Part shown: one piece after another, positions 39,084 to 47,625 of the stretch
Position numbering within the stretch: the first letter of the stretch is position 1
How the letters are laid out: each line of letters begins with the position of its first letter
Origin: Theionarchaea archaeon
GTDB lineage: Archaea; Methanobacteriota_B; Thermococci; Methanofastidiosales; SZ-28-30
Length of the DNA stretch: 55,942 bases
NCBI GenBank assembly: GCA_018992685.1
Contig: JACVGT010000038.1
Span: 1 to 55,942 of the forward strand
Direction of reading: 5' to 3'
Notes under the pieces: model-generated
What the model saw: only the letters and a program-made list of their open reading frames with translations
Database searches by the model: none
Told to the model about the DNA's origin: nothing
Program-made: the position numbers and the translations under genes

Positions 39084-39265
39084 TAAGATACCGTACAGCT
39101 ATCAGGAGAACCTCTCCCACCAAATCTGTTTCTGGATTCCGCACAATTGCACAAATACAAAAACGCTAAATTGGGAATATTTTTACATTTAAGAATATAT
39201 TTTAGCATTTTGAGTCAAAAAGGTTTATATATTGTCCTTTTCATTGAGAGTTGAGGTGATCACAG

Positions 39266-39337
39266 ATGTTTATGGAATACACCATAGCACGAACACGGAT
39301 CGAAGACATCCAAAGAAATTACCAGAAAAAGCACTAA
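39266..39337 (+). CDS. 23-aa microprotein MFMEYTIARTRIEDIQRNYQKKH
   Basis: TATA at 39224-39231, GAGGTG RBS, hairpin and pyrimidine tract after the stop. Homologous to 47322-47393. Confidence 0.65.
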   Translation: MFMEYTIARTRIEDIQRNYQKKH

Positions 39338-39445
39338 GAAGGTCCCCGGATCTTCATTTCTCTTCTTGATTTTTGTTGCCTGGCAGACGGTTTCCCAGGA
39401 ATGATTCTTGCATAAGGGTATAAATGCCAGTTCCTTACTCTGGGT

Positions 39446-40489
39446 ATGAACCTTGACACACTACCCAGGATAGCGCTGGGGCGGTTACCCACACCTCTGG
39501 AGAAGATGGGTACTTTATCGCAGGTTCTTCACATACCTGAGCTTTACATTAAACGAGATGATCTTACAGGTATTGGATACGGTGGCAACAAGATCAGAAA
39601 ACTGGAATACCTGCTGGCAGATGCTCTTTCCAAGGGCGCAGATACAATCATTACCACAGGTGGTGTCCAGTCCAATTTCACCCGTGCTACAACTGCATGT
39701 TGCGTAAAAGCTGGATTGAAACCAGTCCTGGTGTTAATTGGTGACGAACCTGCTGAGTACAGAGGGAACGTGCTCCTGGAAACATTGATGGGAGCAGAAA
39801 TACATTATGTCTCGGCTGATTCTATGGATGAAGGAGCCAGAAAGGCAGACGAACTCATGGAAACGATTGCTGAAAACTTGAAAGCTCAAGGTCACACTGG
39901 TTACATCATGCCTGTGGGTGGATCCATTCCTGTGGGTATAGCGGGATTTGCAAGAGGATTTCTCGAACTCGCCCAGCAGGCAGAGGAGTTGGACATATCC
40001 CCACAGCACATCATTGTGGCCACAGGGTCAGGAGGCACCCAGGCGGGGTTGCTGGTGGGCAAGATATTGAAAGAAGCTACTATCAGAATAGTAGGTATTC
40101 GAGTGGGAAAGATGTTTGAGCCCTTCTGTGAGATGATTCTGGAAAAAGCGAGGGATACAGCACAGTTTCTGGGAATGACCAAATCAATCAGCAAAGAGGA
40201 CGTCATATGTTACAGCGACTTTGTGGGGGAAGGGTATGACATTCCCACGAAAGAGGCAAATGAGGCAATCAGATTGGCGGCCCGAACAGAAGCTGTTTTC
40301 CTGGATCCTGTGTACACGGGTAAGGCGATGGCAGGGCTAATAGGGCTGGTAGAACGTGGCGAAATTCCACGAGATGATACCATTGTTTTCTGGCATACGG
40401 GAGGAGATCCAGCATTATTCGCAGGTGAGGAACTTCTGGGAAAAGAATTTGTGGAATCTCTCAAGACGTCTCCTCAAACTGAGTGGTGA
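39446..40489 (+). CDS. D-cysteine desulfhydrase/ACC deaminase family PLP enzyme
   Basis: KRDDLTG..GGNKIRKLEY, QSN, GSGGTQAG, LDPVYTGKA. Confidence 0.9.
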   Translation: MNLDTLPRIALGRLPTPLEKMGTLSQVLHIPELYIKRDDLTGIGYGGNKIRKLEYLLADALSKGADTIITTGGVQSNFTRATTACCVKAGLKPVLVLIGDEPAEYRGNVLLETLMGAEIHYVSADSMDEGARKADELMETIAENLKAQGHTGYIMPVGGSIPVGIAGFARGFLELAQQAEELDISPQHIIVATGSGGTQAGLLVGKILKEATIRIVGIRVGKMFEPFCEMILEKARDTAQFLGMTKSISKEDVICYSDFVGEGYDIPTKEANEAIRLAARTEAVFLDPVYTGKAMAGLIGLVERGEIPRDDTIVFWHTGGDPALFAGEELLGKEFVESLKTSPQTEW

Positions 40490-47077: not shown

Positions 47078-47321
47078 CGGCAGACGTTATCCATTTCACT
47101 CTTAAAGATAGCGTTCTCACCGTGGTCGAGGAAATGTGGCAACTCATGTATCCCCTGAATCTGAAGAGTCAATTCCGAATTATCCACCGAATTTCGAATG
47201 CCTTTGCTCAGACTATCGTGGATAATTCAAGGCAAAGCGGGAATGTCGCAGGATCTCTTCGATTCTATGATACACTTCGTGAGCCCACAAAAATAGAAAA
47301 CGAGAAGAGGACCAGAGTCCT

Positions 47322-47393
47322 CTACACCCTCTTCTCTTTCATTCTCAATTCATCTTCTATTCGCGTTTTCGCAAGCAGATACAGCTCGTGCAT
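47322..47393 (-). CDS. 23-aa microprotein MHELYLLAKTRIEDELRMKEKRV
   Basis: TATA at 47436-47429, GAGGTG RBS, 7-bp hairpin and pyrimidine tract at the stop. Homologous to 39266-39337. Confidence 0.65.
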   Translation of the reverse strand: MHELYLLAKTRIEDELRMKEKRV

Positions 47394-47625
47394 GTATAAC
47401 CACCTCATCCTTAAGTACATAAAGGTAGTATATAAACATTACGGTCATGTACTTAAAATATGTCAGAACATACTTTTTATACACTACAAGACGACAAACT
47501 TCAAAATGATATGGTCCAAGACTACATAGAAATGTACTTCAGAAGCTCGGGCGTCTAGGCTTCCACGGGTTACAGGCTTTCCACAACCTGCTGACGTGAA
47601 AGAAAAGGGGAACAAAAAAGGAAAA

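Follow-up and report, generated by a model that had tools for sequence, protein, structure and literature searches.

In the genome of a Theionarchaea archaeon (GenBank assembly GCA_018992685.1), two very short open reading frames (ORFs) lie on opposite strands of contig JACVGT010000038.1. The stretch analysed, positions 1 to 55,942 of this contig, is called the window here. The genome, designated G000, comprises 3.03 Mb in 45 contigs with 46.7% G+C and belongs to an archaeal group that, to our knowledge, has no cultured member. The initial annotation described the two ORFs, below copy 1 and copy 2, as members of a dispersed family of 23-residue microproteins. The features of both are listed below; all expression signals (TATA box, Shine-Dalgarno sequence, T-rich tract) were read from the sequence.

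39133..39172, + strand: class-A upstream element of copy 1, a repeat/palindrome block of the GC(N)AAAA type about 53 nt 5′ of the TATA box
39224..39231, + strand: TATA box TTTATATA of copy 1, 34 nt 5′ of the ATG, with an A-rich stretch resembling a B recognition element before it
39253..39261, + strand: Shine-Dalgarno (SD) sequence GAGGTGATC of copy 1, ending 4 nt before the ATG, its GAGGTG core 7 nt before
39266..39337, + strand: microprotein ORF copy 1, 23 codons and TAA, product MFMEYTIARTRIEDIQRNYQKKH
39338..39377, + strand: putative terminator of copy 1, a 7-bp hairpin (39338-39355) followed by a T/pyrimidine-rich tract
47282..47323, − strand: hairpin and T-rich tract of copy 2, the 7-bp hairpin (47306-47323) overlapping the stop codon
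47322..47393, − strand: microprotein ORF copy 2, 23 codons and TAG, product MHELYLLAKTRIEDELRMKEKRV
47401..47406, − strand: SD sequence GAGGTG of copy 2, 7 nt 5′ of the ATG
47411..47420 and 47447..47456, − strand: inverted repeat around the copy 2 TATA box, arms ATGTACTTAA and TTAAGTACAT respectively, the latter being the first arm, which overlaps the 16-mer
47429..47436, − strand: TATA box TTTATATA of copy 2, 35 nt 5′ of the ATG
47439..47454, − strand: class-B promoter 16-mer AAGTACATGACCGTAA, immediately 5′ of the copy 2 TATA box

Both ORFs translate as originally described, and the TATA box at 34-35 nt and GAGGTG at 7 nt before each ATG are found where they had been placed. The longer SD sequence GAGGTGATC is presumably complementary to the 3′ terminus of the 16S rRNA in archaea. 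On recomputation, copies 1 and 2 share 10 of 23 residues in an ungapped alignment (43%), and shared residues are encoded by different codons, as had been noted. No tRNA or Rfam match at the gathering score was found in the whole window. An in-frame ATG further upstream at 47420 would extend the copy 2 product to 32 aa. In the ortholog of copy 2 from the same-genus genome G001 (G001:C46, MHELYLLARTRIEDELKAKEKRI), a stop stands immediately 5′ of the 23-codon start and the open frame is 23 aa, so that the 23-aa form is taken as the conserved one.

The pairwise similarity by itself is marginal. A blastp comparison with the 92,891 stop-to-stop frames that G000 holds at lengths up to 120 aa gave, as the best two non-self matches of copy 1, a third paralog located on contig C3 (E 0.11) and then copy 2 (E 1.5); for copy 2 the best non-self match was copy 1 (E 1.2). 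Pairwise E-values of 0.1-1.5 against the small frames of the genome are what a chance match of spurious ORFs in AT-rich intergenic DNA would also give. The arrangement of TATA box, 17-26 nt, GAGGTG, 5-9 nt and start codon, however, occurs at five sites in the 3.03-Mb genome, and copies 1 and 2 are two of these five; this rare shared architecture removes the doubt left by the marginal E-values. The third paralog (G000:C3:226452-226526, MNLEYALAKLRIEESHKNAFQKKA), referred to as the C3 type, is arranged alike, with the TATA box GTTATATA, the SD sequence TGAGGTGATTACAC before its ATG and a T-rich tail. Reciprocal best matches likewise speak against chance, as do the orthologs with synonymous bias, the 25 ORFs in nine genomes and the conserved promoter blocks described below. 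Taken together, they leave the chance explanation hardly credible.

The initial annotation had also placed a hairpin and a pyrimidine tract at each stop. Both elements are present at the two ORFs. The stability of the hairpins is no better than that of shuffled sequence (copy 1, −7.6 kcal/mol, z −0.04; copy 2, −13.7 kcal/mol, z −1.64), and the copy 2 hairpin is weak in the G001 ortholog. In 4 of 8 folded members from the genus (two C3-type genes, the G001 copy 2 ortholog and the member of G002, the third genome of the genus) the hairpin is weak or absent. The T-rich tract, and not the hairpin, is thus the feature of the family.

The comparative search covered 34 genomes of the same Genome Taxonomy Database (GTDB) order, which fall into four taxonomic families (f1-f4), and 133 genomes at the class level. 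Family f2 consists of six genomes (G010, G016, G019, G013, G007 and G004), f3 of 17 and f4 of seven. The genus itself supplied eight members, three from G000, four from G001 and one from G002. Among them the TATA box is conserved in 8/8 and GAGGTG does not vary in the alignment. Copy 1 is 87% identical to its two G001 copies, in which its T/pyrimidine tract is kept; its class-A element is kept in the G001 orthologs and in the C3-type paralog. Orthologs are conserved only between about −130 nt, counted from the ATG, and about +45 nt after the stop, and the intergenic DNA beyond diverges.

Selection on the peptide, proposed in the initial annotation, was borne out by the synonymous bias. Differences were counted by the Nei-Gojobori method in three G000-G001 ortholog pairs, and the ratio of non-synonymous to synonymous differences per site (pN/pS) was 0.30 for copy 1 (the syntenic pair), 0.13 for the C3 type and 0.16 for copy 2. 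The pooled pairs held 18.7 synonymous differences on 39.5 sites and 13.3 non-synonymous differences on 170.5 sites, which corresponds to a pN/pS of 0.17 (Fisher p 2e-8). In the pooled pairs the proposed frame is free of stops; the other five frames gave pN/pS values of 0.27-2.4, with stops in four of the five. The third codon position takes 21 of the 32 differences (binomial p 1.9e-4). In the C3 ortholog pair, codons 1-17 carry synonymous changes only and every amino-acid change falls within the last six codons. Among paralogs, Y5, A8, R11 and E13 are retained via different codons. RNAalifold found no consensus base pairs in the alignment of the eight genus members. The synonymous bias together with the absence of consensus pairs argues for constraint on the peptide rather than on an RNA fold.

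These data also bear on the possibility that the genes are cis-acting leader peptides or small regulatory RNAs whose peptide has no function in trans. The three G000 genes do precede co-oriented larger genes, which encode a pyridoxal-phosphate (PLP)-dependent enzyme of the PALP type, a metallo-beta-lactamase-fold protein and a YchF-type GTPase, and the promoter and flanks are conserved no less than the ORF. The downstream genes are, however, mutually unrelated. A T-rich tail follows each ORF, and TATA-like boxes stand before downstream genes, such as the one at 39418-39425 ahead of the PALP gene; the YchF gene, too, has a conserved box in front of it. The G002 member is convergent with its neighbours. 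With a pN/pS of 0.17 pointing to amino-acid constraint and no consensus RNA structure, a leader or regulatory RNA function is quite improbable. The description of the two ORFs as monocistronic, unannotated paralogous genes is supported, and the genes are very probably real and translated.

A GTG-initiated ORF of 135 aa (47122-47529, + strand) runs antisense over copy 2 and its promoter. It was considered as the cause of the conservation of copy 2 and rejected: its stop-to-stop frame measures 154 aa here and 74 aa in G001, and since the frame is half as long there, the ORF is taken as spurious. Antisense coding at copy 2 is not indicated either, as the antisense frames gave pN/pS values of 0.27-2.4, with stops in two of the three.

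The existence of a wider family was confirmed by pattern, profile and promoter searches. With the third G000 paralog included, 25 intact ORFs, each 20-29 codons long, were counted, and nine of the 34 genomes searched in the order carry them. They belong to two of the four taxonomic families, f1 and f2, and are distributed as follows.

G000, 3 intact ORFs; G001, 4; G002, 1; G010, 1; G016, 7
G019, 3; G013, 2; G007, 2; G004, 2

The four members of G001 are two copy 1 types (the syntenic one and a duplicate), one C3 type and one copy 2 type. Peptide profiles built from the genus only gave nothing convincing elsewhere in the 34 genomes of the order or the 133 genomes of the class. A back-translated DNA pattern of Y..A[RK].R[IM]E[DE] found the diverged member of G002 (G002:C142, MITYQEAKARMEELQKIKKR), which carries the same signals. 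A covariance model of the gene unit, built from sequence only, and subsequently peptide profiles that had been widened yielded members in 6/6 genomes of f2, for example MFGPEMEYTIAKLRDIERRSKKR in G007, MFDPEMEYAIAKFEMERKIRKY in G016 and MIGPEIEYAKGKLLEMERKVKKY in G019. G003, f3 (0/17), f4 (0/7) and the remaining 99 genomes of the class gave no member of the family.

Several candidates were rejected in the course of these searches. Matches of 197 aa in Thermococcales (E 0.01-0.04) lie inside a larger protein and were taken as chance. Two of six pattern matches in genus g13 were inspected, and their frames have no start at the right place. A match on G003:C97 has stops and sits within another frame. 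A synteny search of G002-G007 for a C3-type copy upstream of YchF found none. Among metagenome contigs of the Joint Genome Institute (JGI), none of 44 pattern matches was confirmed. The contigs of species-representative genomes gave 12 pattern matches, of which two were confirmed, both in one Theionarchaea metagenome-assembled genome (MAG) corresponding to G001. Contigs from four DNA runs (four studies) contained only variants of the G001-type organism and no further orthologs. Of 17 sequencing runs listed, none was recorded as RNA.

Some loci around these members may be mentioned separately. An extra copy in G013 (G013:C105:1512-1571, locus L087) reads …IFPEIEYARGKILEMERKVKKY, has ATT in place of ATG and no SD sequence, and is probably a decaying member. 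The duplicate of copy 1 in G001 comprises a whole unit of about 250 nt, from upstream block to terminator (G001:C138:38634-38801 against C140:6065-6232), at a second, unrelated locus; the similarity is sharply bounded and no terminal repeats were seen. The G002 gene (G002:C142, L042:724-1391) is convergent with two overlapping ORFs that by eye resemble a pair of HEPN and minimal nucleotidyltransferase proteins. An ORF of 61 aa in G000 (G000:C12:45974-46159, − strand; L099:975-1160) has its own TATA box and a AGGAGGTG site and matches nothing in Pfam. Within it, residues 6-21 (MISYEIGKQKMQELQK) match the G002 microprotein better than anything else in G000 (56% identity across 16 aa, E 0.51); the ORF may be a distant relative of greater length, or the match may be due to chance.

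Members in f2 occur as single genes or as tandem pairs. The latter, found at six loci in five f2 genomes, consist of two small ORFs (18-29 and 21-26 codons) under one promoter, with the upstream stop overlapping or directly preceding the downstream SD sequence. The upstream ORF starts with MFG.E… or similar and ends in …KRK[IV]KYYK. It may be read as a paralog on the basis of a by-eye alignment and a profile that contains these ORFs. The tandem arrangement invites the explanation that the peptides oligomerise with themselves or with each other as a two-peptide system, of which the f2 pairs would be the ancestral form; the several paralogs per genome in both taxonomic families are in line with it. 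All eight members from the genus, however, are single genes at separate loci and have two promoter classes, and the homology of the upstream ORF depends on an alignment by eye and on a profile that includes the very ORFs in question. Such a system is thus improbable.

Each gene or f2 tandem pair has its own TATA box, a strong GAGGTGAT SD sequence and a T-rich terminator. Upstream of the TATA box, two classes of promoter are distinguished. The class-B 16-mer of copy 2, searched with at most one mismatch, gave six matches in the 34 genomes of the order, one per genome, and 6/6 stand before a microprotein gene; the reversed 16-mer gave one match. The sites belong to copy 2, its G001 ortholog and four f2 tandem pairs, one of which (G004) was missed by every peptide profile. 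A separate site in G000 (G000:C31:890-1040, L098) has a class-B promoter like that of copy 2 (GGTACAT..CC.TAAGGTTTATATACTAC…) with a degraded SD sequence and no microprotein ORF, and lies before an MFS-transporter-like gene. Either it is what remains of a family member since lost, or the promoter has been recruited.

Class A, characteristic of copy 1, the C3 type and their relatives, is marked by a block made up either of repeats of the GC(N)AAAA type or of a palindrome, TTCGC…GCGAA (TTCGCGAA-like), located about 53-55 nt before the TATA box. Conserved in both taxonomic families, the two promoter classes are older than the f1/f2 split. An nhmmer model of the gene unit also matched the upstream region of a much larger gene of the same genome, G000:C15:19019-20221 (E 4.4e-7). 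Its product, 400 aa long, has a Toastrack/DUF4097 domain (PF13349, E 4e-14); the N-terminal region is helical and SHOCT-like (E 7e-4, under the Pfam cutoff). At this locus (G000:C15:18878-20221; L097:1379-2722) the block stands 54 nt before the TATA box, and the class-A genes and the Toastrack gene have about 100 nt of upstream sequence in common. The class-A element is retained at the G001 Toastrack ortholog, and shared promoter features are kept at the Toastrack orthologs of G001, G016, G013, G007 and G004. The G004 Toastrack promoter and the microprotein promoters of f2 have a longer upstream stretch in common. The 21-mer ATTTGTRCAAAAAAGCTTATA, searched in five f2 genomes with at most two mismatches, gave seven matches, four at microprotein genes and three at SHOCT/Toastrack genes, and its reversed control gave none. 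Judging from the roughly 100 nt of shared upstream sequence, there is a somewhat better than even chance that the class-A genes are co-regulated with the SHOCT/Toastrack gene in one regulon. An activator binding at the TTCGCGAA-like block about 55 nt before the TATA box would suit the class-A position. For the conjectured regulatory role with a common target, put forward in the initial annotation, this shared promoter region is the one functional lead.

In four f4 genomes (G006:C11, G015:C23, G009:C9 and G018:C25; L113-L116), an unrelated ORF of 53-63 codons ending in …CDRN.FN[VI]L[LY] stands directly before the SHOCT/Toastrack gene. A small protein thus accompanies the Toastrack gene also where the microproteins were not found.

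The properties of the peptides were evaluated on 17 aligned sequences of 20-28 residues. They share an N-terminal core, (M)E-Y/L-x-I/L-A-K/R, followed by a charged tail, of which the basic part varies; within the genus M1, Y5, A8, R11 and E13 are conserved. Of their 20-28 residues 7-12 are charged, the net charge is 0 to +5, and the 4-8 Lys/Arg residues are concentrated in the C-terminal half. The mean Eisenberg hydrophobicity is −0.05 to −0.44 throughout, with no hydrophobic segment, and cysteine is missing from 16 of the 17 peptides and occurs once in the other. The zinc-finger mu-proteins of haloarchaea contain two cysteine pairs of the CxxC type. By their charge, negative hydrophobicity and cysteine counts, the peptides are neither membrane peptides nor zinc fingers: a type I toxin or membrane microprotein was rejected for want of a hydrophobic transmembrane helix, and a zinc-finger mu-protein for want of cysteine pairs.

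The initial annotation had called the peptides helical, and this part of it is weakly supported. AlphaFold2 modelled residues 2-31 of the 32-aa upstream-ATG form of copy 2, the only form modelled, as one helix with a predicted local distance difference test score (pLDDT) of 89.5. Such a helix is weak evidence, as short peptides tend to be modelled helical. The helical hydrophobic moment exceeded that of the peptide's own shuffles at p<0.05 in 0/17 peptides, and a classical amphipathic binding helix is therefore not indicated. The peptides probably form a single helix.

The missing amphipathic face, together with a net charge of 0 to +5 and Lys/Arg residues lying mostly C-terminally, could also fit peptides that use their basic tails to act on nucleic acid or on the ribosome instead of on a protein partner. 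The conserved part, however, is the N-terminal core (Y5, A8) with the acidic pair (E13, D/E14). The tails are least conserved, and in the C3 pair all changes lie in the last six codons. A nucleic-acid or ribosomal ligand is regarded as unlikely, though it is the likeliest of the alternatives to protein binding.

Database searches placed the family outside the described ones. A search of 1.84 billion representative proteins with the family profile returned a lone match (E 1.3e-6), a 326-aa protein with six matches over seven profile positions, which was taken as a repeat. The PDB gave nothing in a sequence profile search up to E 10. Among the titles and abstracts listed, literature searches on Theionarchaea, on small proteins of Theionarchaea and Methanofastidiosa, on archaeal small proteins and on Toastrack/DUF4097 gave nothing on such a family. 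The peptides are a new family within a known kind, the archaeal microproteins encoded by small ORFs (sORFs). Multi-copy paralogy, two conserved promoter classes and a promoter shared with a Toastrack gene are its unusual traits.

The nearest described counterpart is sP26 of Methanosarcina mazei, a genus-conserved protein of 23 aa with its own promoter, which binds glutamine synthetase (10.1101/2020.05.06.080432). As described there, sP26 resembles the present peptides in being a 23-aa archaeal product of an intergenic gene with its own short transcript unit, in the conservation of peptide and promoter in close relatives only, and in having no known domain. Unlike them, it is translated from a leaderless mRNA and is apparently single-copy, whereas the genes described here have a strong SD sequence, 1-7 paralogs per genome and two promoter classes. 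The same source attributes to sP26 a demonstrated partner and nitrogen regulation. Two marks of the sP26 kind were found in the present family: judged by their signals, the members are independent genes of no more than 30 codons with their own promoter and terminator, and the peptide is under purifying selection among relatives (pN/pS 0.17). MtrR and the small proteome of M. mazei, obtained by ribosome profiling (Ribo-seq) and peptidomics, comprise previously unannotated sORF proteins, some of which modulate a large enzyme complex (PMC13370731, PMC11456600). The M. mazei proteins are reported with experimental translation evidence and come from another lineage, and no sequence relation to the present family is shown.

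Toastrack (DUF4097) and SHOCT-like proteins are partners of the Psp/Lia envelope stress systems and have been proposed to form an intracellular membrane-proximal docking platform in bacteria (10.1101/2020.09.24.301986). The gene sharing the class-A promoter is like those partners in encoding an N-terminal SHOCT-like helix pair and a Toastrack beta-helix. The microproteins themselves are not Toastrack, SHOCT, PspA or PspC and are tied to the system by promoter sequence only, not by an operon.

The term microProteins (miPs) is applied to truncated paralogs that titrate a larger protein via a shared interaction domain. The present peptides are similar in being short and probably single-helical, in having several paralogs and in possibly interfering with a larger protein. 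Derivation as a truncated paralog of the Toastrack N-terminus was nonetheless rejected (hhalign probability 0.5%, one aligned column). No larger G000 protein matched the family profile, the best non-member having an E-value of 1.5-3.

The whole of these observations is best explained by a family of microprotein genes, 20-29 codons in length, that is restricted to this lineage, whose members are transcribed independently and whose products may bind protein and be Toastrack-linked; to this reading as a whole we give a probability of roughly 0.55. By analogy with sP26, the peptides would be small binders in the cytoplasm that modulate some larger protein of the cell, perhaps inside a Toastrack-linked membrane-proximal stress response. 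That they are protein-binding modulators is a tentative suggestion, which we would rate at slightly less than an even chance. It is doubtful that the Toastrack protein itself is the partner; co-folding it with copy 2 in its 32-aa form gave no answer (score 0.00), which bears neither way. Equally doubtful is an undescribed archaeal membrane-stress module in which one transcription factor, binding at the TTCGCGAA-like block, would turn on the SHOCT-like/Toastrack scaffold together with diffusible 20-29-aa peptides; these would dock at the scaffold or compete there and in this way tune its signalling, and the class-B set, under different regulation and often in tandem pairs, would feed the same target.

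A number of points weigh against this reading. The 22-nt class-A pattern with at most three substitutions occurs four times in the genome and one to three times in mononucleotide shuffles, and is not rarer than expected; class A draws its weight from the long nhmmer match, from standing at a fixed distance and from recurring in f2, not from the short pattern. The shared promoter could also stem from duplication of a promoter cassette with no functional link, and the f4 genomes, in which no family members were found, still carry the Toastrack gene. With the genus-only profiles, the f1-f2 link reached an E-value of just 0.013-0.018 per genome for the G007 match; the link also relies on the gene architecture and is considered settled because of the shared promoter blocks. 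The peptide evolves fast: the same-genus f2 orthologs of G010 and G016 have about 9 of 22 residues in common (by eye), their promoters being almost identical, and two G016 paralogs differ (by eye) at non-synonymous positions only. Seven members searched against Pfam and NCBIfam up to E 10 matched nothing, SHOCT (PF09851) included, so that there is no relative of known function. The profile search of 1.84 billion proteins found no family member, which is expected as the genes are below the size limits of gene callers. The form modelled by AlphaFold2 has nine extra residues that are probably not translated, and the hydrophobic moments, given above, lend protein binding no help.

Standard gene callers overlook genes of this length. 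The present results show that comparative genomics of MAGs alone can establish a multi-copy microprotein family, its purifying selection and its promoter classes in uncultured archaea. If the link holds, a regulon coupling microproteins with a Toastrack scaffold would provide an entry point to regulation by small proteins and to stress signalling at the envelope or membrane in this archaeal group.

As to the surroundings of the two ORFs in the window, copy 1 lies between an S-layer-like protein gene and the PALP enzyme gene, and copy 2 is flanked by the genes of the metallo-beta-lactamase-fold protein and a saccharopine-dehydrogenase-like protein. The PALP gene (39446-40489) has its TATA-like box, GTATAAAT (39418-39425), just 20 nt before the ATG and no SD sequence. 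Owing to this short distance and the absence of an SD sequence, its mRNA is probably leaderless, in contrast to that of the adjoining SD-led microprotein gene.

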